A stretch of 64,000 nucleotides of DNA from a virus (Duplodnaviria; Caudoviricetes), in the IMG/VR virus record IMGVR_UViG_3300025671_008697, one strand, 5' to 3'. Position numbers and translations under genes: made by a program. Below are positions 48,953 to 63,956 of this stretch, in pieces (the first letter of the stretch is position 1; every line of letters begins with the position of its first letter). The notes under the pieces were generated by a model. It made no database searches, was not told where the DNA came from, and was given only the letters and a program-made list of their open reading frames with translations.

Positions 48953-49140
48953 TGAATTATGATACCTTAGTCACGCTGAAAGTTTTACAACAAGAAATCA
49001 GTGTGCTCAAGAATAAGATTATGCCAGAAGATAGTGGACACATTTATACTGCTATCAGCGTGATTAAGGATCGTATAAAAGAATTAGAATGTGAACTAAC
49101 ACCAGAAGAACAAACTTGGTACGCACTAAATGCCAACTAA
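48952..49140 (+). CDS. Hypothetical small protein
   Basis: 62 aa, overlaps both neighbours. Confidence 0.5.
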   Translation: MNYDTLVTLKVLQQEISVLKNKIMPEDSGHIYTAISVIKDRIKELECELTPEEQTWYALNAN

Positions 49141-50689
49141 AGACGATTTAACACAAAAACAAAAAGACTACGCAGTATTCTTACCTGCGCTCAGTAGTTT
49201 TTACAGCAGAGATGTTAGCAAACAACAGTTAGACCCTAACTACATTGATCCAGCACGAGTACCCCAAGACTTTGAAAATGGAGTAGAAGGCTTAAACTGG
49301 ATGAACAAAAATGAAGGCTACTTTACCTATCATTGGAGTTTGTATTCAGCAGGACACGCAGACTTGAACTTGAACAAGATTGGTGGGCGTGATGACATGG
49401 TGCGTAATCGAAATCGTAAAAACGCATTTGTGTTGGGCGATAGCGGTGGCTTTCAGATTGGTAAAGGTGTCTGGGAAGGCAACTGGAAAGATCCTAACTG
49501 CCCACAGGCTGCTAAAAAACGTAAGCAAGTATTAGAGTGGATGGATGCTTACATGGATCGTGGCATGATCCTTGATATTCCTGCTTGGGTCGCTCGTAGT
49601 CCTGCAGGGCAACAGGCAACAGGCATTACCACATATGCAGAAGCAGTGGCGGGCACTAGCATCAACAACGAGTACTTTATGCAGAACCGCAATGGTAACT
49701 GTAAGTTCTTAAACGTACTGCAAGGCGAAACACACGCCGAAGCAGATGACTGGTACGAGCAAATGAAACATTACTGTGATCCCAAACAACACGCACAGCC
49801 GTTTGAAGGTTGGGCAATGGGTGGGCAGAATATGTGTGATGTACACCTTGCACTACGCCGTATTGTTGCGTTAAGGTTCGATGGATTATTGGAACCGGGA
49901 CTGCACGATTGGATGCACTTTCTTGGCACAAGCAAATTAGAGTGGGCAACTCTACTTACAGACATTCAACGTGCAGTCCGAAAGTACCATAACGAAAACT
50001 TTACAATCAGTTTTGACTGTGCCAGTCCTTTCCTTGCCAGCGCCAACGGACAGATTTATTATGATGTTACCATAGAGGACCGCAGTAAGTGGAGTTACTT
50101 GATGCAACCCAGCATCGACGACAAAAAGTATGCAAAAGATTTTCGTCCTTTACGTGACACTATACTACAGGACGGGATATTTGAATCATTCTTGGAAAGT
50201 CCCATCAGTGAACGTCTCAAAGCCAAAGACGTTTGTATCTATGCGCCAGGCGACTTGAACAAACTGGGCAAAGAAGGACGTACAAGTTGGGACAGTTTCA
50301 GTTACACACTACAAATGGGACACAACGTATGGACTCACTTGTATGCTGTACAGGAAGCCAATCGTCAATATGACGCAGGCCTGTATCCCGAAATGTTAGT
50401 AGCAACTACCAGCAACAAAAAGGCTTTCAGGACTTATGACAGAAACTTCTTCCGTGACATTGTGGATGATATCTTTGCTACCAGTGACAGAAGCCGTGCT
50501 GAAGAACTGATTGAACACTACAACCGTTATTGGTTAAGCATTATCGGCACACGTGGTGCAGTTGGTAAGAAAACTGTAAACAGTAAAACACAGTTCTTTA
50601 ACTTGTTTGAAACCGAAGAAGTGGAAGAACATCACAGAGATGACAGTGACTTGGATGAATCTAAACTCGAAGCACTGGAACAAGAATGA
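49130..50689 (+). CDS. tRNA-guanine transglycosylase-fold protein (DpdA-like base-exchange enzyme)
   Basis: GDSGGFQIG, MILDIP, LQG, GWAMGG, HFLGTS, SFDCASP match TGT-fold motifs; folE and queD-like genes nearby. Confidence 0.75.
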   Translation: MPTKDDLTQKQKDYAVFLPALSSFYSRDVSKQQLDPNYIDPARVPQDFENGVEGLNWMNKNEGYFTYHWSLYSAGHADLNLNKIGGRDDMVRNRNRKNAFVLGDSGGFQIGKGVWEGNWKDPNCPQAAKKRKQVLEWMDAYMDRGMILDIPAWVARSPAGQQATGITTYAEAVAGTSINNEYFMQNRNGNCKFLNVLQGETHAEADDWYEQMKHYCDPKQHAQPFEGWAMGGQNMCDVHLALRRIVALRFDGLLEPGLHDWMHFLGTSKLEWATLLTDIQRAVRKYHNENFTISFDCASPFLASANGQIYYDVTIEDRSKWSYLMQPSIDDKKYAKDFRPLRDTILQDGIFESFLESPISERLKAKDVCIYAPGDLNKLGKEGRTSWDSFSYTLQMGHNVWTHLYAVQEANRQYDAGLYPEMLVATTSNKKAFRTYDRNFFRDIVDDIFATSDRSRAEELIEHYNRYWLSIIGTRGAVGKKTVNSKTQFFNLFETEEVEEHHRDDSDLDESKLEALEQE

Positions 50690-51381
50690 TTTTTGAAAAA
50701 AACGACACGCAAACAAAGCAACGTGACCCTAATAGGTCACCAGTTATGCATGCAGAAATTGCACATCTGTTTCCTGTACCTTTGTACGTTAAAGAAAATG
50801 CTGTGGATTCTGCATTAACTGAATGTTTACAAAATCCAGACAATCGAGAACCTCATTTAATGATAGACAATTGGGGGCATGTCAGCAAAGACAACTATTA
50901 TCTAAATCAAGAAAAGTGTCAGGCATTAAAATCCGCTCTCACTGCTTATGTAAATGACATGGCGAATAATGTGTTAGGGTTTGCTGGAGAGTTTGTAATT
51001 ACACAAAGTTGGATTAGTACCAAAAAGCCTTATCAAAGTCATCAACTTCATACACATCCTAACAGTATTATTAGCGGTGTATTTTATTATGACAATCCAG
51101 AAGACGCTAGCCAAATTAGTTTTGTGAAGCCAAACTTTACTAGTTCTATATATAGTTTGAAACCGATTCGTAATGATGAGAACAATGTTTTCACTGCAGA
51201 TGAAATGCATATTAACGTAAAGAATACTATGCTGCTTTTATTTCCTAGCTATTTACAGCACACTGTTTCGATGAACGAAAGCCAAGTAAATAGATATAGC
51301 CTAGCATTTAATACTATGCCCAGGTATCAGTTAGGATTACAGAACGACTTAACACAACTTAAAATGCCAAACTTTGAATAA
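50686..51381 (+). CDS. 2OG-Fe(II) oxygenase-like protein
   Basis: LFPVPLY, HTHPNSIISGVFY, LFPSYLQHTV, RYSLAFN. Confidence 0.75.
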   Translation: MIFEKNDTQTKQRDPNRSPVMHAEIAHLFPVPLYVKENAVDSALTECLQNPDNREPHLMIDNWGHVSKDNYYLNQEKCQALKSALTAYVNDMANNVLGFAGEFVITQSWISTKKPYQSHQLHTHPNSIISGVFYYDNPEDASQISFVKPNFTSSIYSLKPIRNDENNVFTADEMHINVKNTMLLLFPSYLQHTVSMNESQVNRYSLAFNTMPRYQLGLQNDLTQLKMPNFE

Positions 51382-51391
51382 GGAGACGACT

Positions 51392-51595
51392 ATGTATGAA
51401 ACCCGTATTAAACACCTTGAAGAAATGCACCGAGTATTAGATAGTAAAATTGAGGCGTTAGAAAAAACAGGTATATATGAAGATCATGCTCTTGCAAATA
51501 TGAAAAAGCAAAAACTTCAAATTAAAGATGAACTAAGACGGCTCACCAGATTGCAATGGGAACATAATCACGAAACTGTAAACTTCGACGACTAA
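51392..51595 (+). CDS. DUF465/YdcH-like coiled-coil protein
   Basis: HRVLDSKI...MKKQKLQIKDEL; SD AAGGAG supports ATG 51392. Confidence 0.65.
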   Translation: MYETRIKHLEEMHRVLDSKIEALEKTGIYEDHALANMKKQKLQIKDELRRLTRLQWEHNHETVNFDD

Positions 51596-51597
51596 TT

Positions 51598-52077
51598 ATG
51601 GCACAACTATACAGAATCACACCCTTGGAAAAGAAAAGCATCGAATTTGTAATCGAATGTTATCAAAAATTAGAAGATGGAGATACCAGAGGTTTTACAG
51701 CAACATTTCTCTACCGTTGGGGACAGGGGTTTAGAGAACTAGACAATCCTGTAAGTAAGTGGGAAGCAACCAGTGACGATGGTGTAAGTTGTGATCCCAC
51801 AATCGGTTGGGGAGCAGAACTAGATGACGGCATCAGTACATGGGTTGATTTCGACGGCGATTGGACTGATGCAGAACGAGAAGAAATTGAAGCCTACTGT
51901 GAAGGCGAACTAGAGGATGATGAAGGACGCTGTTGCGAAGCATGGTTGTTTGATGGAGATCACGAATACGAAATCGAAATGGACGAAATTGTAATTCATG
52001 GTCCCGTTAAAATTGACTTAGTAGACGAAGACAACTATAATACTGTAATCGAAGAAAACGTAGAACCTCAAGAATGA
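51598..52077 (+). CDS. Hypothetical acidic protein
   Basis: 159 aa, strongly D/E-rich. Confidence 0.6.
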   Translation: MAQLYRITPLEKKSIEFVIECYQKLEDGDTRGFTATFLYRWGQGFRELDNPVSKWEATSDDGVSCDPTIGWGAELDDGISTWVDFDGDWTDAEREEIEAYCEGELEDDEGRCCEAWLFDGDHEYEIEMDEIVIHGPVKIDLVDEDNYNTVIEENVEPQE

Positions 52078-52970
52078 AAAGTTTAGTTATTGGCATGGGT
52101 ATAGGCCAACTATACCTTGCTGTATTGAAAAACATTGGCTCAGAAGTAATCACCGTAGACACAAACGAAAATGCCGGAGCACATTTTGCCAGCGTGGACA
52201 GTGCATTAGAACGGCATCCATTTTTTGATACTGTACATATCTGCACTCCAAACTTTACACACTATGATTTGGCAGCAAAGGTAGCACCCTACACAAAAAT
52301 TGTTTTTGTGGAAAAACCCGGTGTTGCTACCGCAGAACAATGGCTGTCATTGCTAACTACATTTCCTAAAACACGTTTCATGATGGTTAAAAACAATCAG
52401 TGGCGTGATGAGTTTGTGGACTACAAAAAGATTGCTGAAAGTGCGGACACTATCTTGTTTAAATGGATTAACCGGAACCGCGTACCCAAACCAGGTAGTT
52501 GGTTTACTGATAAGAAACTGGCATATGGTGGAGTTAGCAGAGACTTGTTACCTCACTTGCTAAGTTATTACACAGGATTCTTTTCGGACTTTGCCAAATC
52601 TGTACCTAAAGTAAAACTTGTAAAGCAACGTTGGACTATCGATGACTTGGCAGATAGTGACTATGGTGAAGTTGATCCTAATGGTCATTATAATGTAGAC
52701 GATAGGGTGGAATTGGAAATGAAGCATAACGGCAAACTGTTGTTCTTTATTGCAGATTGGCGCAGCAATGATAAAGATGACATCGGACTAACATTTATTG
52801 CAGAAGGCGGCGCAAGATTTGAATTTGAACTAGGTCTCTGTCCAGAAAGTGCATACGAAATAATGATTCGTAGTGCCGTAGATAATCTAAATAACAGTGA
52901 CTTCTGGCAACAACATATTAAACAGGATCTTTGGATTCACGAAGCAATAAGCAATGTCACAGCAAGTTAA
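52074..52970 (+). CDS. Gfo/Idh/MocA-family NAD(P)-dependent oxidoreductase
   Basis: VIGMGIG, HICTPNFTH, VFVEKP, GGVSRDLLPH. Confidence 0.85.
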   Translation: MKSLVIGMGIGQLYLAVLKNIGSEVITVDTNENAGAHFASVDSALERHPFFDTVHICTPNFTHYDLAAKVAPYTKIVFVEKPGVATAEQWLSLLTTFPKTRFMMVKNNQWRDEFVDYKKIAESADTILFKWINRNRVPKPGSWFTDKKLAYGGVSRDLLPHLLSYYTGFFSDFAKSVPKVKLVKQRWTIDDLADSDYGEVDPNGHYNVDDRVELEMKHNGKLLFFIADWRSNDKDDIGLTFIAEGGARFEFELGLCPESAYEIMIRSAVDNLNNSDFWQQHIKQDLWIHEAISNVTAS

Positions 52971-53871
52971 AGTATTATCCACCGTAGGTCAAGGTGAGTT
53001 TGTAGAAACAGACTACACCTTACCTGAATTACAACCCGATGAAATTTTAGTCAAAGCCATAATGACCGGCGTGTGTCGCAGTGACATTGACATGATGCAG
53101 GGCACGTTTGGACCACTGCCATTAGACATGCAGGGACATGAAGGATTGGGAATTGTTGCTGCCAAAGGCACGCAAGTACATGACGTTATAGTAGGCGACT
53201 ATGTGGCTACCAGAGGTGAACCTGCTTATGCTGATTTCTATCGCAGTAGATCCAATGAATATGTGTGGGTGCCAGAAGCACTACCTAAATATATTTTAGA
53301 ACCAGTGGCCTGTGGAATCAATGTCATACATCAACCTTTGCGTGAAATTGCAGAACGCAGTGGACCAGGACGAAGGTTATTGTTGTTAGGCAGTGGATTT
53401 TTGGCTTGGGTGGCCTACCACACCATCCTACTTAATCATTTGGAATTTGACGTAGATGTTGTGGGTACTAGCAATCGTGCGCTTTGGCAAGATACACTCA
53501 AATCGTATCCGCAGGACTGCGAATACGATGTTGTCATTGATTTGAGTGGTCGATATGATGTGTTTACTGGCGTATACAACGCCAAAGAAAGTTTGTTGGT
53601 AGTGGGTGTACAAAATACTGTAACCACAGACTTTGGTAGTTTACTTTGGAAAGCCTGCACTATCATGTTTCCCAGTCCGAGAACAGATGGTTTCTATAGT
53701 GCAATGAAATCTGCCGAATATTGGATAACCAATGGCGATATTGTAGTTGACAGTTTTTGGACAAAAGGTTATAATAGATACACAGAATGGCAACAGGCAT
53801 TTCTAGATGGAGCAAATCGTCCCGACGGTTACAGTCGAGGATACATTTATTGGGGTAAAAATGACAATTGA
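52954..53871 (+). CDS. Zinc-binding (MDR) sugar/alcohol dehydrogenase-like protein
   Basis: GVCRSD, GHEGLG, GDYV, LEPVACG, LLGSGFL. Confidence 0.85.
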   Translation: MSQQVKVLSTVGQGEFVETDYTLPELQPDEILVKAIMTGVCRSDIDMMQGTFGPLPLDMQGHEGLGIVAAKGTQVHDVIVGDYVATRGEPAYADFYRSRSNEYVWVPEALPKYILEPVACGINVIHQPLREIAERSGPGRRLLLLGSGFLAWVAYHTILLNHLEFDVDVVGTSNRALWQDTLKSYPQDCEYDVVIDLSGRYDVFTGVYNAKESLLVVGVQNTVTTDFGSLLWKACTIMFPSPRTDGFYSAMKSAEYWITNGDIVVDSFWTKGYNRYTEWQQAFLDGANRPDGYSRGYIYWGKNDN

Positions 53872-54379
53872 TACAAGCGGTCGAAAACAAGTAGACTACT
53901 TTGTTGGTGTAGAAGTAGAAAATACTATCATGAAAGGTGAGCGTACACTGTTTGTAGTGGGCGTAAAACCTGTTGACGAAATTGTCGAGATCGCAGAACG
54001 TGAAGGCGTAAGACATTTATACTTTGGTACCAGCCAAAGTTTTCATCCTGCCAATCCTTATGAATGGGCACAGTGGGATGATATGATTAAGCCATTGTTG
54101 GTTAAAAACTATTGGGTCACACTGGACTTTGGTGTTGAGTATGCTCCAGAGATTCACGAAGAATCTTGGAATGAGTACAACACATTCATTCCTATGATCT
54201 CAGTTAAACTGCCTTACATTAAGCAGTATAACTATCACGCAACACTTAAGATTGATGACAACACTTGGGGTGACACTAACCCTGGTGTTTGGTGTCATCC
54301 TCTTAATGAATTACTTAAACGACGTGTCTACACAGACTGGAAAGACTATGTAGGCGACGAACCTATAGGTGCAAAATGA
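53861..54379 (+). CDS. Hypothetical protein
   Basis: ATG 53861 overlaps the dehydrogenase stop, with GGGG SD. Confidence 0.6.
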   Translation: MTIDTSGRKQVDYFVGVEVENTIMKGERTLFVVGVKPVDEIVEIAEREGVRHLYFGTSQSFHPANPYEWAQWDDMIKPLLVKNYWVTLDFGVEYAPEIHEESWNEYNTFIPMISVKLPYIKQYNYHATLKIDDNTWGDTNPGVWCHPLNELLKRRVYTDWKDYVGDEPIGAK

Positions 54380-54819
54380 ATCAAGAACAAAGAGAACAAG
54401 TTAATCGTATCATGGAACGAGCAGACCGTAAAGTCTGGGTAACGTTTCGCAAAGAAGGCATCCATCGCTACCCAGCGGCGGCAACAGATCCTGCATTAGC
54501 AACTGGAAACGAGTATGATGTTAGTTTTCTTGGCGTGCCACATCGACACATTTTCCACTTTCGTGTCTGGATCGACGTACTACACAATGATAGAGACATT
54601 GAATTCATACAGTTTAAACGCTGGTTGGAAAATCTCTACCGCGATGGTACTTTAGCATTAGACTACAAGAGTTGCGAAATGATGAGCGATGACTTGTACG
54701 TACAAATTAGCAGTCGTTATCCGGATCGTGCAGTATGGATTGAAGTATCAGAAGATGGCGAGAATGGCGCACTGATCCGTTATGAAACCACTCACCCTAA
54801 CTTATCTGTCAAAATTTGA
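54376..54819 (+). CDS. QueD-like T-fold protein (DpdL-like candidate)
   Basis: EGIHRYP, FLGVPHRHIFHF, HNDRDIEF, SCEMM, VSEDGENGA. Confidence 0.65.
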   Translation: MNQEQREQVNRIMERADRKVWVTFRKEGIHRYPAAATDPALATGNEYDVSFLGVPHRHIFHFRVWIDVLHNDRDIEFIQFKRWLENLYRDGTLALDYKSCEMMSDDLYVQISSRYPDRAVWIEVSEDGENGALIRYETTHPNLSVKI

Positions 54820-55685
54820 TTAATATATTTTTTGCTCCAGGCACATTTGGTAGTACCATGGAATACATGCTCAGAAACTTTACTAAAGATTTTGAAAATG
54901 TAAAAGGTAATATTATGCTAGATGGTTCAATGCATTCATTTAAAAAAGAATGGCATGTTGCATCCTTGGATAAGACTGAGACTTATTCAGAAGAAATAGA
55001 AATTTCAACAGTGACCTATCCGTGGTATGGGAAATCATTAGACGAAATTTTTAATGTATGGCCTGGTGATCTAAAAAAATCAAAAAATGTTTGTATAAAA
55101 GTAAAAGACCTAGAGGCTGGAGAACTAAATTTATTATTCTTTTTTTATAAAATTGCGAAAAGTATTCTATCAGACTATTTTGCCGCCGACAAACATTTTG
55201 CACGATGGAACTCAAACTATACCAATCATAAAGATATGCAAAAATGGGAGAAGCGAGAATGGTATAGTTTATTTTATATAGGCTTGCTCAATGACTGGTT
55301 AAATGTAGAAAAACCGATAAATCAAATTGGTAATTTCTTACTAATTAATAATATAGATATTCTTAATAATTTAGACATTGAGTTTACAAAAATTGTCGAT
55401 CATTGCGGCTTAACTGAAGATAAATCTATAGAGTATTTTGAATTTGTCACAAAATGGACTAAGGCACAACAATATATTTTAGAAGAATTTAAATTAATAG
55501 ATAAAGTGGTATTATCTACAATAAATGGCTTAGATTTTGATTGGTCTCAAGATAGACTTTGTTTTACTTCAGAGTGTATAATACAAAAAAGATTACGCGA
55601 TAATGGGTATGAAATAAAGTGCTACAATCTAAATGATTTTCCAACCAATAGTGAACAACTATATAACTTACTTGAAAAACAATAG
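54816..55685 (+). CDS. Hypothetical AT-rich protein, possibly sulfotransferase-like
   Basis: N-terminal FFAPGTFGST Gly loop. Confidence 0.5.
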   Translation: MINIFFAPGTFGSTMEYMLRNFTKDFENVKGNIMLDGSMHSFKKEWHVASLDKTETYSEEIEISTVTYPWYGKSLDEIFNVWPGDLKKSKNVCIKVKDLEAGELNLLFFFYKIAKSILSDYFAADKHFARWNSNYTNHKDMQKWEKREWYSLFYIGLLNDWLNVEKPINQIGNFLLINNIDILNNLDIEFTKIVDHCGLTEDKSIEYFEFVTKWTKAQQYILEEFKLIDKVVLSTINGLDFDWSQDRLCFTSECIIQKRLRDNGYEIKCYNLNDFPTNSEQLYNLLEKQ

Positions 55686-55694
55686 GAGAAAGTA

Positions 55695-55886
55695 ATGGCA
55701 GCAAAATGGCTTGAAAAATATCTTACTATGAAGCCAGAAGTCACAAAAATCTTTGATGACTTAGAACAGTATCGTGATTACTGCAAATTTAACTTTGTCA
55801 AGTTCGACGAGCGGGACTTGTACAAGAGTGATGCATATCGCAAATTTGATCGACAGCGTAATCGTCGAGAACGACAAAATGGCTAA
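55695..55886 (+). CDS. Hypothetical small protein
   Basis: SD AGGAG; 63 aa. Confidence 0.6.
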   Translation: MAAKWLEKYLTMKPEVTKIFDDLEQYRDYCKFNFVKFDERDLYKSDAYRKFDRQRNRRERQNG

Positions 55887-56952
55887 CGTATTTTTAGTTG
55901 ACTTAGAATCGGTTGAAACACGTTACACTGGTCAATGGCAGTCACATATCCCAGAACTGTTAAAGAAAGCAGGTCATAATGTTCAAGTTTTATCTGGTCC
56001 TACGGACATTCCTAGTGCCACTACTCCTGGCGCCTTTCTTAATTTTGGTGGGACTAATATCTATAAGTCTAGTCAAGTCGAAGCAATGGGTAGACTATTT
56101 TGCAGTGGGGGAGTTGGGCGTGGTGACCATTTTCTTTTTACTGACGCTTGGCATCCAGGCATTATTAACCTAAAGTACATGAGTGAACTACTGGATATTC
56201 CAGTAAAGATTCACGCACTTTGGCACGCCGGTAGTTATGATCCAGCAGACTTTCTTGGAAGACTGATTGGTGATGCTCCTTGGGTACGCTATGCTGAAAA
56301 AAGTTTCTTTGAAGCCATAGACTACAACTATTTTGCCACAGACTTTCATATCAACATGTTTGCTGGTAACTTGTTAAATGCAAATCTTGGCACAATGTAC
56401 AAGTATCAGGAGTCCAAAAAAGTAATTCGCACAGGTTGGCCCATGGAGTATATGGACCAGACACTGTCTCCATACAAAGGTATGACTAAGCGTGACTTAA
56501 TTGTGTTTCCGCATCGTATCGCTCCAGAGAAACAGGTCGCCATATTCCGTGACTTAAAAGAACAACTACCTGAATATGAGTTTGTAGTCTGCCAAGATCA
56601 GGAACTTACCAAGAATGAATATCACAATATTTTAGGCGAAGCCAAAATTGTGTTCAGTGCCAGTTTGCAGGAAACCTTAGGTATAGGTGCATATGAAGGC
56701 GCTATTGTAGATGCTATTCCCATGGTGCCTGACAGGCTCAGTTACAGTGAAATGTATTATGAGGGATTCAAATATCCCACAGAGTGGACAGAAAATTTTA
56801 GCAAGTACATGATCTACAAAGACCATTTGGTTAATCATATTCGTGCCACTATGGAACACTATGAACGGCGTTTGCCAGAACTTAAAAATCAGACACAGGA
56901 CCTGACTGACAACTTCTTCAGTGCAGGATCATTATTAAAAAATATAAACTAA
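55879..56952 (+). CDS. GT-B-fold glycosyltransferase
   Basis: ATG 55879 (MANVFLVD); FPHRIAPEKQ, SASLQETLGIGAYEG, VPDRLSYSEM. Confidence 0.75.
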   Translation: MANVFLVDLESVETRYTGQWQSHIPELLKKAGHNVQVLSGPTDIPSATTPGAFLNFGGTNIYKSSQVEAMGRLFCSGGVGRGDHFLFTDAWHPGIINLKYMSELLDIPVKIHALWHAGSYDPADFLGRLIGDAPWVRYAEKSFFEAIDYNYFATDFHINMFAGNLLNANLGTMYKYQESKKVIRTGWPMEYMDQTLSPYKGMTKRDLIVFPHRIAPEKQVAIFRDLKEQLPEYEFVVCQDQELTKNEYHNILGEAKIVFSASLQETLGIGAYEGAIVDAIPMVPDRLSYSEMYYEGFKYPTEWTENFSKYMIYKDHLVNHIRATMEHYERRLPELKNQTQDLTDNFFSAGSLLKNIN

Positions 56953-57546
56953 ATGTCTTTTGATACCGTTTTCGAATTTGAAAAAAGAATAGCAGAATAT
57001 TTTGGATCTCCTTACGTTATCAGTACGGACTCCTGCACCCACGCTATTGAATTATGTTTGAGATACGAGAATCCCGAAACAGTATCTATTCCTCAGCACA
57101 CTTATATTAGCATACCGTTCACTTTAATTAAATGCGGTATTGATTTTTCTTGGCAGGAAAATTATTGGCAGGATTATTATAATATTTCAAATACTAATAT
57201 TATTGACGGTGCCGTTTATTGGAAAATTCAAGGTTATATTCCTGGAAGTTTATTATGTTTAAGTTTTCAGCACAAAAAACAACTTTCTTTGGGAAGAGGC
57301 GGCGCTATTTTATTAGATAATAAAGAAAAATATGAATCACTAAGCCGCATGCGATATGATGGAAGAGATCTAAGTCGTCCTTGGGCAGAACAAGATTTTA
57401 CAGAAATAGGATATCACTATTATATGACGCCAGAAACTGCTCAACTTGGAATAGAAAAATTAAAGGATATTAATCCAAGCCAATCAAAAACTTGGTCGTG
57501 GCAGGATTATCCAGATTTAACTAAATTGACAGTTTTCAAAAAATGA
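56953..57546 (+). CDS. Miniature DegT/DnrJ/EryC1-type PLP aminotransferase-like protein 1
   Basis: FEKRIAEYFG, CTHAIEL, IIDGA, SFQHKKQLSLGRGG, GYHYYM; only 197 aa. Confidence 0.7.
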   Translation: MSFDTVFEFEKRIAEYFGSPYVISTDSCTHAIELCLRYENPETVSIPQHTYISIPFTLIKCGIDFSWQENYWQDYYNISNTNIIDGAVYWKIQGYIPGSLLCLSFQHKKQLSLGRGGAILLDNKEKYESLSRMRYDGRDLSRPWAEQDFTEIGYHYYMTPETAQLGIEKLKDINPSQSKTWSWQDYPDLTKLTVFKK

Positions 57547-58133
57547 CTTTCAACTCCATTTTAAAGTTTGAACAGGAGTTAGCCGAATTCACAGGCGCTC
57601 CTTACGCAGTCATGACTGACTGCTGTACTCATGCCATTGAACTTTGTTTTAGGCTAAATCGTCCCGATGTACTCAAGTTTACTGCTTACACTTATCTTAG
57701 CATTCCAATGTTGATGCACAAATTGGCTATACAGTATGAATATATGGACGAGCAGTGGACCAGCGAATACAGATTTTATGGATCAAATGTTTGGGACTGT
57801 GCTCGACGACTTGAAAAAGACATGTATAGACCCGAGCGCATCCAGTGTTTGAGTTTTGGTTGGGACAAGCCTTTACAAATAGGCCGTGGTGGTGCTATAC
57901 TATTAGACGACAAAAACAGTTATCAAAGGCTAATCGAAATGAGATACGATGGTAGAGACTTAACACAAGTGCCGTGGCAGGAGCAACGTGTGTTTAGAGT
58001 TGGTTATCATTATCGTCCCACAATTGAAGAAGCCGAGGCTGCATCCCAAGAACTTAAAAAAATTAAAATTACAACCCCCAAACCTAAATACAAACAGTAT
58101 CCGGACTTAAGAACTATAGAGATTGTAAAATGA
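57543..58133 (+). CDS. Miniature DegT-type aminotransferase-like protein 2
   Basis: FEQELAEFTG, CTHAIEL, VWDCA, SFGWDKPLQIGRGG, GYHY; 196 aa. Confidence 0.7.
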   Translation: MTFNSILKFEQELAEFTGAPYAVMTDCCTHAIELCFRLNRPDVLKFTAYTYLSIPMLMHKLAIQYEYMDEQWTSEYRFYGSNVWDCARRLEKDMYRPERIQCLSFGWDKPLQIGRGGAILLDDKNSYQRLIEMRYDGRDLTQVPWQEQRVFRVGYHYRPTIEEAEAASQELKKIKITTPKPKYKQYPDLRTIEIVK

Positions 58134-59471: not shown

Positions 59472-60179
59472 ATGACAGAAAAAACACTAGCACAGGCCTT
59501 ACGTGAAAGAATGCGATCAGACAACAAACGTTTCTTTGCAGGAGATAACATCAGCGATTACGTAACAGACTCTGATCGTGAACAGTTGATCGAAGAAGCA
59601 ACAACTGCATTTGAATCTGTATTAGATGTATTGCTGATTGACAGGGAAAATGATCCCAACAGTCATGACACTGCTCGCAGACTGGCAAAAATGTACTTTA
59701 ATGAAATTATGGCAGGACGTTATGAGCCCAAGCCAGATGCTACTGCATTTCCCAACGAATCCAATCATGAACTGGATGAACCCTATGATGGTATGTTGGT
59801 TGTACGCAGTGAACTAAAAAGTATGTGCAGTCACCATCACCAGCCAGTTAGTGGTGTTGCTTACATCGGCATTTTGGCTGCTAACAAATTGATTGGTTTG
59901 AGCAAGTATACACGTATTGCACAATGGTGTGCTCGACGTGGTACACTACAAGAAGAACTTGCTATGACCATTGCCAGAGAAATTATGTGTGCCACAGACA
60001 GCAAAGATGTTGGTGTTTACATTCAGGCTACACATGGATGTTGTGAAAACAGAGGCATTATGGCACATAGCAGTCTTACACAGACCACAGTGCTCAAAGG
60101 TGCCTTTAAACAAGATCCAGGTACTAAGAAAGAGTTTATGGACAATATTAAACTACAACAGGAGTTTGCGCCGCGATGA
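59472..60179 (+). CDS. folE: GTP cyclohydrolase I
   Basis: TARRLAKM, SMCSHHHQP, GLSKYTRI, LQEE, HGCCENRG. Confidence 0.95.
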   Translation: MTEKTLAQALRERMRSDNKRFFAGDNISDYVTDSDREQLIEEATTAFESVLDVLLIDRENDPNSHDTARRLAKMYFNEIMAGRYEPKPDATAFPNESNHELDEPYDGMLVVRSELKSMCSHHHQPVSGVAYIGILAANKLIGLSKYTRIAQWCARRGTLQEELAMTIAREIMCATDSKDVGVYIQATHGCCENRGIMAHSSLTQTTVLKGAFKQDPGTKKEFMDNIKLQQEFAPR

Positions 60180-60595
60180 TACTTAAATTACTGGAACGTT
60201 TAGGTCGTCGACGCATTGTAATGGATCGTGTCAACGATGAACCCTACTTAGAACGTTACTATCTTTTCTTAAAGGATAGGCAGCGTTTTCCTTTTAATGT
60301 ATTCCTACATAAGTTTCTTAAGTCAGACCCAGATGATTTACACGATCATCCCTGGCCCTATGCTACGCTGATCCTAAAAGGTGGTTATTGGGAAACTACT
60401 CCAGAAGGACGTTTTTGGAGAAGTCCAGGACACTTTAGAATCTGTAAGGCCAACAGTCTACATAGAATCGAACTTGACCCCGAGGTTGAATGTTGGACTG
60501 TGTTTATGCCAGGCCCTAAACAGCGTGAATGGGGTTTTATCAAAAACGGTACTTGGACACAATGGGAACAATACTTAGCAGGTAGAGCAAAATGA
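60176..60595 (+). CDS. Cupin-fold protein
   Basis: LHDHPW, GGYWE, LHRIEL, REWGF. Confidence 0.65.
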   Translation: MILKLLERLGRRRIVMDRVNDEPYLERYYLFLKDRQRFPFNVFLHKFLKSDPDDLHDHPWPYATLILKGGYWETTPEGRFWRSPGHFRICKANSLHRIELDPEVECWTVFMPGPKQREWGFIKNGTWTQWEQYLAGRAK

Positions 60596-61098
60596 AACAA
60601 GAAATTATCAAACACCGAGAATTCAAAAGCATGGTGCAAAGCATCGGGCGCAAACTAACCAAGGTCACTAGTACATGGCAACCAGACTACATTGTGGGTA
60701 TTACTCGTGGTGGCCTGTATCCTGCACTGTTGCTCAGTCATTATTTAGACACGCCAATGCATGCACTTGGTGTAAGTCTACGTGACGAAAAAGAAAATGG
60801 TTGCGAAAGTAATCTATGGATGGCAGAAGATGCTTTCGCTGGCAAAAATATTCTTGTTGTAGATGACATCAATGACACTGGTGCTACCTTTAATTGGATA
60901 GTCGAAGATTGGCAGGCTGGATGCTTGCCCTATGACGAACGTTGGGCCATGGTATGGAACAACAACGTGCGTTTCTGTGCTATAGTAAATAATGCTGCCA
61001 GTGAGTTTCAATACAAAGTAGACTATACTGCTATGCCTATAGACAAAAGCAAAAACGACTGTTGGATTGTTTTCCCGTGGGAGAATCAGGGCGAATAA
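60592..61098 (+). CDS. Type I phosphoribosyltransferase (purine PRTase-like)
   Basis: GITRGG, PRPP-binding ILVVDDINDTGAT, WIVFPWE. Confidence 0.9.
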   Translation: MKQEIIKHREFKSMVQSIGRKLTKVTSTWQPDYIVGITRGGLYPALLLSHYLDTPMHALGVSLRDEKENGCESNLWMAEDAFAGKNILVVDDINDTGATFNWIVEDWQAGCLPYDERWAMVWNNNVRFCAIVNNAASEFQYKVDYTAMPIDKSKNDCWIVFPWENQGE

Positions 61099-61130: not shown

Positions 61131-62594
61131 ATGCATTTACAGTATTTAGATAATAAAAATAAAACACAAATAGACTTTGTTTTAGTTACAGTACCATGGA
61201 CTGACAGTTCTATGCCTTTAATGGCGCCAGCTGCTCTTAAACCTGTTATTGAGCAGGAAGGCTTATCTTGTTTAGCAATAGATTTGAATGCTGAAATCTT
61301 TGATTACACTAAGACTGCAAGTAATAAAGATAGTCTTATTCAATTTTTCTTTAATGGATACACAGATTCTGAAGCAGCAGCAACAGAACTAGAAGAGTTA
61401 TTTGTAGAAATTGCAAATAGAATTTTATCATATAGACCTAAGTATGTAGGATTGAGTATCTTTAGTTACGTTTGCCAACATAGTGCAAAATGGATTGCAT
61501 ATTTTCTAAAGAAAATGGATCCTGACTTAATTGTGTTAGTTGGTGGTGCAGGTTGTTTGAATACATTCACCGGACCATCAGAATTTGTAGACGAACTTAA
61601 AAATCTAAATCTAATAGATTATCATATCAGAGGTGATGCAGAGCATTCGTTGGCAGAATTTCTTAGGAAGAATAAAACATTCCATGGTATAAATTCGCTA
61701 ACTTGGAGTGAAATGAGCAATGATGAAATACGTTCATTGCCGATTCCCGACTACGATGATTATATTTTTGATTTTTACACACAAAAAACTATTCCTTTAG
61801 TCGGAAGTAGAGGATGTGTCAGACGATGTACCTTTTGTGATTATATTGCTAATTGGCATAAATTTACCTGGAGAGATGCTGACTCTATTTTCTCTGAGAT
61901 GCTGTTTCAAAATAAAAAATATAAGGTTAACAAATTTAAATTTCAAGACAGTCTAACTAACGGCAGCATTTCTGAATTTAGAAAATTAACCAAACTATTA
62001 GCAACACATAACAAAGATAATCCAAACAATGAATTTCGTTGGTCTGGTTATTATATATTTAGAGATGTAAACAACACCAGCGATTCAGATTGGGAATTGA
62101 TTTATAAAAGTGGCGCGGAAGTTCTTATGGTAGGCATTGAGAATCTTAATCAACATATTCGTTATGATATAGGAAAAAAATTTAACAATGAATCTATAAT
62201 ATATCATTTAGAAAAAGCACAACAATATAAGATCAAAATTTCCATGCTTAACATTGTAGGATACGTAACAGAAACAAGGTCTGATATAGAATATATTAAA
62301 CAATGGTTACGAGATAATACCAGATTTAAAGATAATATAGTTATACAGTGGGGCGGTACTTTAGGTATTTTTCCTAACACTTATTTGGAAAAAAATAAAG
62401 ATAGACTAGGAATAAGTATGATAGGAAATGGTCCTCCGCTCTGGATTAACAAGCAAACCGGTAGTACACCCTCAATGAGGGCGTCTTGGGCAAAAGAATT
62501 AAATGATTTTAGCAAAAGATTAGGGTACTCAGTTCATAATAATATTGATAATCATTACCTATTAGAAATGCTTATGCAAAATGAACAAGTATAA
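61131..62594 (+). CDS. Cobalamin-binding radical SAM protein
   Basis: N-terminal B12-binding-like domain (YVGLSIFS, VGGAG), SRGCVRRCTFC (CxxxCxxC), GIEN. Confidence 0.85.
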   Translation: MHLQYLDNKNKTQIDFVLVTVPWTDSSMPLMAPAALKPVIEQEGLSCLAIDLNAEIFDYTKTASNKDSLIQFFFNGYTDSEAAATELEELFVEIANRILSYRPKYVGLSIFSYVCQHSAKWIAYFLKKMDPDLIVLVGGAGCLNTFTGPSEFVDELKNLNLIDYHIRGDAEHSLAEFLRKNKTFHGINSLTWSEMSNDEIRSLPIPDYDDYIFDFYTQKTIPLVGSRGCVRRCTFCDYIANWHKFTWRDADSIFSEMLFQNKKYKVNKFKFQDSLTNGSISEFRKLTKLLATHNKDNPNNEFRWSGYYIFRDVNNTSDSDWELIYKSGAEVLMVGIENLNQHIRYDIGKKFNNESIIYHLEKAQQYKIKISMLNIVGYVTETRSDIEYIKQWLRDNTRFKDNIVIQWGGTLGIFPNTYLEKNKDRLGISMIGNGPPLWINKQTGSTPSMRASWAKELNDFSKRLGYSVHNNIDNHYLLEMLMQNEQV

Positions 62595-63003
62595 TGTAAA
62601 ACTAAAACTAGAATTTGGTAGTATCAATGGAAAATTTATGAATGTAGAATATCAAATTAATTCTAGTAGGGTAAAAAAAGTTTTAGTTAGTGAAAATGAA
62701 GGATTACTCGATGATGAAATTTCTTTGCCTGGAAAGGTACGTTTATTTTTTTCCAATAAAGACAATGCTACAGATACTATAGTTAACGAAAGTAATGAAA
62801 TAGTTGCTGATTTATACGTAAAAATATTAGGAATAACACTAGATAATTTTGATATTCCTCAAGTCTATATACAAAAAAACCTAAAGTTAGTTACAGAAAA
62901 AAATAATCAAATTAACACTAACTATATTGGCTTTAATGGAACTATGGAAATACCATTCGATCAAAATTCGGTATTTAAACAAATCAATTGGTTCAAAAAA
63001 TGA
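62581..63003 (+). CDS. Hypothetical beta-rich protein
   Basis: 140 aa; resembles 19855..20301 by eye. Confidence 0.55.
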   Translation: MNKYNVKLKLEFGSINGKFMNVEYQINSSRVKKVLVSENEGLLDDEISLPGKVRLFFSNKDNATDTIVNESNEIVADLYVKILGITLDNFDIPQVYIQKNLKLVTEKNNQINTNYIGFNGTMEIPFDQNSVFKQINWFKK

Positions 63004-63008
63004 GCAAA

Positions 63009-63014
63009 TAAATA
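63009..63014 (+). promoter_or_regulatory. TAAATA late-type promoter
   Basis: 6 nt before an ATG that opens the queD leader. Confidence 0.55.
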
Positions 63015-63020
63015 TTCTAT

Positions 63021-63088
63021 ATGCGGCCTTTTTGGAATCATCCCGCTATACAAATTCTGCTTCCTATGCTATAATTTTTACATAGGGA
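63021..63088 (+). promoter_or_regulatory. Candidate preQ1-I-like pseudoknot plus SD-sequestering hairpin in the queD leader
   Basis: P1 GCGG/CCGC, P2 GGAAU/AUUCU, A-rich L3 UAUACAA; anti-SD UUCCUAUG pairs with CAUAGGGA. Confidence 0.45.
63047..63075 (+). promoter_or_regulatory. Sigma70-type extended -10 promoter inside the queD leader
   Basis: TATACA-N17-TATAAT with TG at 63067-63068. Confidence 0.5.
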
Positions 63089-63093
63089 ACAAC

Positions 63094-63618
63094 ATGGCAA
63101 AATTTTATTCTACAAAAACTTACGGCAACGACAGAGGACTAAGTTGTTGCTTTAGGCAATGGCGTGCCACGCACAGTCATTGCAGTACACTACACGGTTA
63201 TGCAATCGGTATCAAATTGGTATTCGAATGTGACACACTGGATGACAAAAACTGGTGCATGGACTTTGGCGGACTCAAAGAGTTCAAGGCCTGGGCAGAC
63301 TATATGTTTGACCATACCTTAGTAGTTGCTCGAGATGATCCTCATCTAGCGTTTTTTAAACAGATGTCCAACATGGGTCTGCCATTAGACAGCGGCAGCG
63401 GCCAAGTACAGACTGTGAAACCGCATGAACGCGAAGCTGTTTGCGATTTGCGGATTGTAGAAGGTGTTGGCTGCGAAATGTTTGCAAAAATGTGCTACGA
63501 TAAAATGGCCGAACTGATTGCCAGTGGCACCATGCGTTATCCAATCAATCCCACTGTGCGTATCAAAAGCGCAGAAGTATTTGAACACGCAGGCAACAGT
63601 GCTATCTACGAAGGGTAA
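63094..63618 (+). CDS. queD: 6-carboxytetrahydropterin synthase (QueD/PTPS)
   Basis: CSTLHGY (CxxxHG), DFGGLKE, FDHTL, VFEHAGNSA. Confidence 0.85.
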   Translation: MAKFYSTKTYGNDRGLSCCFRQWRATHSHCSTLHGYAIGIKLVFECDTLDDKNWCMDFGGLKEFKAWADYMFDHTLVVARDDPHLAFFKQMSNMGLPLDSGSGQVQTVKPHEREAVCDLRIVEGVGCEMFAKMCYDKMAELIASGTMRYPINPTVRIKSAEVFEHAGNSAIYEG

Positions 63619-63623
63619 CTACT

Positions 63624-63956
63624 GTGACTAAACTTAAAATTTACGACATAGGTGGTGAAACAATCAAAGACAATGAAACTTATGTTTTAAAAGACAATAA
63701 AACTCTAAATAACTTAGTAATAAGTTCAACCGAACTACACGGCTTACAGAGCACCAGAGGACATCGCCACGAGGGACAGGAAGAAGTTTATTATTTTGTA
63801 AGTGGCACGGGAGAAATGGAGTTAGATAATGAAAAATTTCCAGTGCAGGGTGGCGATGTTGTGTTAATAAAGGATGGTGTGTTTCATAGAGTACACAATA
63901 CCAGTAACACAAAACTTTATTTTGTCTGTGTTTTTGATGGAAAAAGGAATCATTAA
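63624..63956 (+). CDS. Cupin-2 protein
   Basis: GHRHEGQEEVYYF, GVFHRVHN. Confidence 0.75.
   Translation: MTKLKIYDIGGETIKDNETYVLKDNKTLNNLVISSTELHGLQSTRGHRHEGQEEVYYFVSGTGEMELDNEKFPVQGGDVVLIKDGVFHRVHNTSNTKLYFVCVFDGKRNH

Follow-up and report, generated by a model that had tools for sequence, protein, structure and literature searches.

A candidate ON-wired pseudoknot riboswitch in the queD leaders of uncultured phages

Two well-known leaders control translation through a folded RNA element. The mRNA of T4 gene 32 carries an H-type pseudoknot at its 5′ end that controls translation in autoregulation, and the add adenine riboswitch of Vibrio vulnificus is a translational ON switch in which an aptamer strand is shared with the helix that sequesters the ribosome-binding site (RBS), so that binding of the ligand frees the RBS. 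The preQ1-I riboswitches are defined by an H-type pseudoknot and by a C specificity base before the 3′ strand of helix P1, which is preceded by U or A (PMC11625349), by U in type I and by A in types II and III (PMC11625349). In these RNAs, U6 in loop L1 and A30 in loop L3 read the ligand, and a short helix P2 touches the Shine-Dalgarno sequence (SD), resulting in repression (PMC11625349). Few riboswitches are found in phages, and the reported ones, such as the glutamine riboswitches (PMC9004378), are copies of classes known from bacteria. Here, we analyzed the leader of a queD gene in a stretch of 64,000 nucleotides (nt) from the viral record IMGVR_UViG_3300025671_008697, referred to below as the window; all coordinates are on its + strand. 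The source is an uncultured, large, T4-related lake phage, and the window contains a T4-type DNA polymerase together with phage structural and lysis genes. The leader comprises the 90 bases at 63004-63093, between an open reading frame (ORF) for an uncharacterized protein of 140 amino acids (aa), which ends at 63003, and the queD ATG at 63094. An earlier reading of this sequence (the original prediction) had proposed a preQ1-I-type switch in the leader that represses queD when its ligand is bound. Our comparative sequence analysis instead suggests, with a probability that we put at about 0.6, that the leader is an uncatalogued phage-borne cis-regulatory RNA with an H-type pseudoknot aptamer, most likely a translational ON riboswitch.

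The window QueD protein has 495 relatives among viral contigs, of which the best 80 of 495 were used for comparison. A conserved block with compensating changes was found in the 110 nt before the start codon in 73 of these 80 loci, and in the seven loci without it queD directly follows, or overlaps, the upstream ORF. Close QueD homologues that are devoid of the motif (L016, L021, L025, L026, L042, L044 and L045) have no leader after the upstream ORF, which indicates that the motif accompanies a free-standing translation start. A scan of viral contigs with the core pattern, independent of the gene, returned at least 120 loci, with a complete motif in about 110 of those listed, and altogether at least 186 instances, corresponding to at least 135 distinct aptamers, were parsed from viral contigs. 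In a gapless alignment of 39 sequences, 96.8% of the cells pair and 8 of the 12 pairs change on both sides; slid registers pair in only 28-57% of cells, and none of 500 shuffles equalled the observed covariation score. A covariance model (CM) that holds P2 only, termed R1, was applied to the loci obtained by protein homology and gave 53 matches, and in the alignment derived from it 96.5% of the cells pair with P1 included. Taking the two alignments together, 8-9 of 12 pairs have changed on both sides (0/500 shuffles match).

Both helices contribute to this signal. P1 pairs in 99.6-100% of cells, with changes on both sides in three to four of its five pairs, and although it is absent from the R1 structure it is still 99.6% paired in that alignment, where four of the five pairs change on both sides. 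The conserved P2 (63034-40/63058-64) is paired in 94.5% of cells in one alignment and in 92-100% in the other. Since the 39 sequences had been selected for a regular P2, the count was repeated for every distinct copy, unfiltered and on a rigid anchor; pairing was then 89.5% in the homology set and 80.5% in the pattern set, compared to 29-50% in slid registers, with at least four pair types at each position. The frequency of G.U pairs in P2 indicates that the constraint acts on the + strand RNA. The riboswitch-like H-type pseudoknot that the original prediction had placed in the queD leader is thus borne out by covariation in P1 and P2. The R1 model has a single match in the window, at 63020-63068 (56.5 bits, approximate E of 1.6e-11). 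A related contig has, about 1 kb 5′ of its strong copy, a second and weak match at L090:6-53 (22.8 bits, E 0.012). The leader alone is ordinary by folding, with a minimum free energy (MFE) of -15.4 kcal/mol and a z of -0.63 versus shuffles, and single-sequence folding was accordingly discarded as uninformative evidence for its structure.

P1 and P2 cross each other and thereby form an H-type pseudoknot. The 5′ strand of P1, (U)GCGG, is at 63022-63026 and its 3′ strand, CCGC(U), at 63043-63047, both as placed by the alignments, and variants such as GCGG/CCGC, GAGG/CCUC, GUGG/CCAC, GUCG/CGAC and CCGG/CCGG occur among the relatives. In the window, U.U stands at the closing position 63022/63047, where nearly all relatives have A-U or U-A; the P1 proposed originally (63023-26/63043-46) covaries, and its length of only 4 bp describes the window, with five pairs in nearly all relatives. 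Loop L1 (CCUUUUU, 7 nt, 63027-63033) includes the invariant C63028 and U63029 (columns C20 and T21 of alignment A1). In the family, L1 varies in length, and its first base is split nearly evenly among A, C and U (52/49/44) and followed by the invariant CU. The 5′ strand of P2 (63034-63040) consists of the variable and covarying GGAA at 63034-37, U63038, and the invariant CA at 63039-40, and the 3′ strand, UG-C-UUCC (63058-63064), ends in the UUCC at 63061-64, the switching strand, which is common to the SD hairpin described below. U63038 stands opposite C63060 as a conserved mismatch, so that P2 in the family is composed of CA/UG, the U.C mismatch, and four to seven covarying pairs.

Loop L2 (UC, 63041-63042) places C63042 directly 5′ of the P1 3′ strand, making it a candidate ligand-pairing base. 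The original prediction had singled out this unpaired C, and it is indeed invariant, in its column of A1 (52 sequences) and of A2, and in all A3 rows. Most copies have U just before it, a few have A or C, and a pattern with U in place of the invariant C had no real copies among 116 matches, as against about 110 of 120 with C among the matches listed. Loop L3 (AUACAAAUUC, 10 nt, 63048-63057) has the consensus N-W-A-N-A-N-A-Y-U-C, in which three A and the terminal UC are invariant. That L3 contains A residues had been foreseen; its extent had not, since it runs over 63048-57 and takes in the AUUCU that had been assigned to P2.

All of the complementarities listed in the original prediction are present in the window (P1, C63042, GGAAU at 63034-38, AUUCU at 63054-58, UUCCUAUG/CAUAGGGA, and the ATG at 63094), and it had taken GGAAU and AUUCU as the two strands of P2, so that a ligand-stabilized P2 (63034-38/63054-58) would release UUCC onto the SD and switch the gene OFF. 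This pairing can form in the window, and the UC preceding the 3′ strand of P1 is like that of preQ1-I type I (PMC11625349). Across the relatives, however, only 64% of cells are paired in this P2 and covariation is lacking, with both sides changed in a single cell of a single pair, whereas it is the GGAA/UUCC type of pairing that covaries. GGAAU/AUUCU was rejected as P2, its 3′ partner being the invariant single-stranded L3 and its 5′ strand varying freely. The pairing of GGAA with UUCC, which had been regarded as a competitor of the aptamer, is possible as proposed and proves to be a conserved aptamer helix. Together with the lack of any match to a preQ1 model, these results make a preQ1-I-type OFF switch extremely improbable.

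The original prediction had named a preQ1-I model search and covariation among phage queD leaders as its checks; the latter is present in P1 and in 63034-40/63058-64, and the former gave no match at the gathering level or at E<=10. Rfam 15 families are absent at the gathering level from the window as well as from 20 related loci, and the stretch 62950-63150 contains no riboswitch family even at E<=10; preQ1-I, preQ1-II and preQ1-III had no match at E<=10 in 121-201-nt stretches of the window and of the related loci L091 and L005. On short stretches, E<=10 yielded only chance matches to miRNA and snoRNA families and a 13.5-bit match over the SD to freshwater-2 RNA (RF02980), a cis-regulatory motif from freshwater metagenomes and the sole Rfam cis-regulatory family to appear. 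This match, on L091, compares with a gathering score of 49.9 and aligns to the SD/AUG region and not to the pseudoknot, and freshwater-2 is absent at the gathering level from the window and the 20 related loci. Literature searches found no published queD, preQ0 or 7-deazaguanine phage riboswitch.

The phage motif resembles preQ1-I (RF00522; B. subtilis queC, T. tengcongensis, C. antarcticum and E. coli) in its H-type pseudoknot with a P1 of 5 bp, in the C directly before the P1 3′ strand, mostly as UC like in type I, in an A-containing L3 after P1, and in its link to biosynthesis genes for 7-deazaguanines of the queuosine type. On the other hand, the first base of L1 is variable and followed by the invariant CU, whereas preQ1-I has a conserved U (U6) in an L1 of 2-3 nt; P2 has 7-10 positions and does not include the SD, which sits 20-30 nt downstream of it, whereas the preQ1-I P2 has 3-4 bp and contains or abuts the SD; and the 10-nt L3, with its alternating A and its terminal YUC, belongs to an aptamer of about 45-50 nt compared to about 34 nt. 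The 3′ strand of P2 is moreover an anti-RBS strand with ON wiring, unlike the exclusively repressing modes reviewed for preQ1-I, and the phage motif was found here only in uncultured phages. Because of disagreement in the CM score, in the L1 rule, in the L3 pattern, and in the length of P2 and its role towards the SD, we do not file the motif under preQ1-I, and the family membership suggested originally is not supported, given the missing Rfam match, even at E<=10, and the much longer L1, P2 and L3.

The same aptamer precedes three types of leader, found in 59 (class A, including the window), 42 (class B) and 45 (class C) distinct leaders. In the window, an RBS-sequestering hairpin between UUCCUAUG (63061-68) and CAUAGGGA (63081-88) is part of the MFE structure. 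The SD, GGGA at 63085-88, pairs there with UCC 63062-64 and U63061, so that all four variable P2 bases are common to the hairpin. Throughout class A, the 3′ strand of P2 runs on into CCUAUG...CAUAGGAG, and within the hairpin the CC is paired to the SD GG. In classes B and C, the partner of the P2 3′ strand, extended by the following 3-5 bases, is the region of the start codon, for instance as GUCAUC/GAUGGC or GCCAUUG/CAAUGGC, and where the first codons diverge both partners differ, as with AAGUC pairing to AUGACUU, for which the P2 5′ strand is GACUU. Three of the eight pairs of the class C start-codon helix are compensatory, and 41/42 class B and 39/45 class C leaders have every base of the AUG paired. 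The RBS-hiding helix appears in the nested MFE structure of 131 of the 146 leaders, and its mean duplex energy is -8.2 kcal/mol versus -5.9 kcal/mol for P2; the values in the window are -7.9 for the platform hairpin, -7.0 for the RBS duplex and -4.1 for P2, the P2 values being duplex and not pseudoknot energies.

Since both nested folding and duplex energies favor the RBS-hiding helix, the default state would be a closed RBS, and since this helix and P2 share one strand, stabilization of the pseudoknot would open it. These findings indicate that the leader is likely wired as a translational ON device, the opposite of the feedback repression proposed originally, in which the fact that the P2 3′ strand is itself the anti-RBS strand had been missed. 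The leader contains no intrinsic terminator, and transcription attenuation was therefore dropped. In its ON logic the motif is like the add riboswitch, from which it differs in having a pseudoknot in place of a three-way junction, in its ligand and in the organisms that carry it. According to the mechanism that we favor, a small molecule would bind at the P1/P2 junction, pair with C63042 and lock P2; the locked P2 would keep UUCC 63061-64 off the SD at 63085-88 and allow ribosomes to start at 63094, and in the unbound RNA the hairpin 63061-68/63081-88 would close and translation would be off. That the pseudoknot is stabilized by a bound small molecule is something we infer from the pattern of conservation. 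The leader combines a covarying structure at the 5′ end with a gene link to one pathway and a platform strand shared with the aptamer, the generic hallmarks of a riboswitch.

The same competition of helices could also operate independently of any ligand, as a folding device in which the pseudoknot forms first and the RBS is open transiently, or depending on temperature or Mg2+, so that the leader serves as a timer or thermosensor. The aptamer strands are indeed transcribed before the RBS, and the RBS helix is both the more stable of the two (-8.2 vs -5.9 kcal/mol) and the MFE state. However, the invariant unpaired C of L2 (U in 0/116), the CU of L1 and the A.A.A.UC of L3 exceed what a competitor helix needs, and we consider such a device quite unlikely.

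Among the matches listed, the ORF 3′ of the motif belongs to the PTPS/QueD superfamily in 177 of 179 cases, and these genes comprise three clearly distinct PTPS/QueD subtypes, one of which is canonical QueD. The exceptions are a motif directly before a cupin gene homologous to that at 63624-63956 in the window (L153:6778-6829) and a motif before a 243-aa protein that has no Pfam family (L164:4352-4402). In a further locus (L051), a second motif copy (1345-1395, 36.1 bits) precedes a 312-aa radical SAM gene at 1422-2360; this copy shares the locus with the one before queD and directly follows a phosphoribosyltransferase gene. A QueE-like gene, for which the best PDB matches are all 7-carboxy-7-deazaguanine synthases, comes next after queD in several class A relatives. 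In the window, folE (59472-60179) and a xanthine/guanine-type phosphoribosyltransferase gene (60592-61098) lie near queD, and the same trio is also found together in Synechococcus phage BUCT-ZZ01 (L322), a cultured cyanophage. This grouping hints that guanine salvage feeds the pathway and that guanine is a candidate ligand. The candidates as a whole are heterocycles of the pathway with a guanine face, namely guanine, preQ0, preQ1, CDG or 7-deazaguanine, and a pterin substrate, and the ON logic favors a precursor or by-product (guanine or dihydroneopterin triphosphate) over the end product.

A protein could take the place of the metabolite, in which case the pseudoknot would be an operator, as in T4 gene 32, through which a phage or host regulator or an enzyme of the pathway selects between P2 and the RBS helix. 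The motif shares with the T4 gene 32 leader its H-type pseudoknot and its position at the 5′ end of an mRNA of a T4-type phage, and given that the present phage is T4-related and that gene 32 autoregulates through its leader pseudoknot, such an operator has a precedent; it would have a structure and switching strand identical to those of the riboswitch. The gene 32 pseudoknot, though, nucleates cooperative protein binding, and is not known to share a strand with the RBS or any sequence similarity with the motif. The occurrence of the motif before three PTPS subtypes, a cupin and a radical SAM gene is more easily reconciled with a common metabolite than with autoregulation through a single protein. 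The small number of invariant bases and their location at the helix junction are typical of small-molecule pockets, and no candidate RNA-binding protein is conserved beside the motif. We thus regard a protein operator as unlikely, and the riboswitch as the preferred explanation.

A search of 185,579 bacterial and archaeal genomes with the core pattern gave no full motif among the 120 matches listed, and the CM fits only the pattern region of these matches, at chance level (<=25 bits). QueD homologues of cultured phages, annotated as QueD-like, have at most 47% identity, and the motif is missing in six cultured phages that encode them (immuto, BUCT-ZZ01, Moby, MA9V-3, ACP17 and BUDD), which mostly have no leader; blastn with two aptamers against cultured phages found nothing real. 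Within the genomes sampled, the motif is so far restricted to uncultured viral contigs. It stands at about even odds, in our estimate, that it represents a new riboswitch class, restricted to large uncultured phages, in which a metabolite with a guanine face from the 7-deazaguanine pathway (perhaps guanine or a pterin substrate) switches ON queD and, with it, queE, cupin or radical SAM genes. If so, this would be a riboswitch class known solely from phages, governing an early committed step of 7-deazaguanine synthesis, and phages would meter their DNA-modification chemistry through metabolite sensing; by annotation, a 7-deazaguanine pathway leading to bases of the queuosine or archaeosine type is present in some cultured phages that have homologous QueD genes. 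As an ON-wired relative of the preQ1-I fold, the motif would further show how the wiring of a minimal pseudoknot pocket, and perhaps its target, can change, and synthetic biology would gain a compact ON switch of about 45 nt.

Promoter-like sequences lie both before and within the motif. Upstream, a putative T4-type late promoter, AATAAATA at 63007-63014, matches TATAAATA at 7 of 8 positions, and if it acts as a promoter it would set the RNA start at about 63020, just 5′ of P1. ATAAATA, which resembles a T4 late promoter, occurs shortly 5′ of P1 in 25/59 class A leaders, and a sigma-70-like promoter is present in 25/45 class C leaders, with a -10 element that ends exactly 7 nt before P1 in 21 of them, indicating that the RNA starts at the motif. 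Embedded in the motif, a sigma-70-type promoter-like site at 63047-63075 consists of TATACA (63047-52), a 17-nt spacer and an extended -10 element, TGCTATAAT (63067-75), with 10 of 12 consensus matches plus the TG. Its -35 element coincides with the last P1 base and L3 positions 1-5, and its extended -10 lies inside the hairpin loop. The corresponding arrangement, TTTACA or TATACA, a spacer of 17-18 nt and TGnTAnnnT (TGCTAWAAT), is found in 56/59 class A leaders (for example, L008, L024, L054 and L085), where it co-occurs with C at L3 position 4 (56/59 class A leaders vs 4/87 others). The start predicted for this promoter, at about 63082, would give an RNA that has neither the aptamer nor the anti-SD arm and is thus probably unregulated. 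In the phage-confined riboswitch class to which we give about even odds, one lineage would carry a sigma-70 promoter inside its aptamer and platform by which early transcripts escape control. A metatranscriptome search returned one 254-nt contig, from one run, of a 92%-identical relative; it lies inside the queD coding region and is uninformative on the leader.

These promoter elements raise the question of whether the sequence conserved past P1 in class A is maintained mainly at the DNA level, as a sigma-70 promoter (TATACA, 17 nt, TGCTATAAT), with the aptamer being a relic. The near-consensus promoter in 56/59 class A leaders, its correlation with C at L3 position 4, and the invariance of the hairpin would all be explained in this way. 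Yet P1 and P2 still covary in class A, with CCGG/CCGG, GGCG/CGCC, GGGC/GUCC and, in the window, GGAA/UUCC, and the CAUA past the -10 element is conserved without being needed by a promoter. The two functions are compatible, and we consider a promoter with a relic aptamer highly unlikely.

Several points weigh against an ON riboswitch. Control in the ON direction of a biosynthetic gene by a ligand related to its pathway is unusual, and a 2024 review of preQ1 riboswitches lists gene-repressing modes only (PMC11625349). The hairpin by which the original prediction hid the SD (63061-68/63081-88) is present and conserved in class A, yet it is nearly invariant, so that covariation provides no test of the window hairpin, and the embedded promoter could account for part of the conservation of this hairpin. 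The window copy is also somewhat atypical, with U.U closing P1 and only four variable P2 pairs. Finally, the CM E-values are approximate, the energies of P2 apply to a duplex, the loci derived from the pattern are skewed to its conserved core, and the instance finder demanded complementarity in P1.

The gene that the leader would control (63094-63618, 174 aa) encodes a divergent subgroup of the PTPS/QueD family, with 50.7 bits to Pfam PTPS (PF01242, cut-off 22.4) and 33.6 bits to the NCBIfam QueD model TIGR03367 (cut-off 89.25), and has no sequence match in the PDB. The protein reads ...HSHCSTLHGY..., and the canonical QueD of L162 reads ...CAHLHGHNY...; judging from its divergent sequence, its exact reaction may differ from that of canonical QueD. 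The cupin-domain gene (Pfam Cupin_2) at 63624-63956 begins 5 nt after queD and is probably in the same operon. In five large related phage records, one of which is an estimated 91% complete, no Pfam TGT was found and the QueC matches were marginal only; proteins of the DpdA type may escape Pfam models of the TGT type. Neither Pfam nor NCBIfam has a match to a 519-aa ORF at 49130-50689. Upstream of folE, the region 50686-58133 encodes a 2OG-Fe(II) oxygenase, a GFO/IDH/MocA oxidoreductase, an ADH-like protein and two fragments of DegT-type aminotransferases, a run of the sugar or tailoring type, and a B12-binding radical SAM methyltransferase-like gene is located at 61131-62594.

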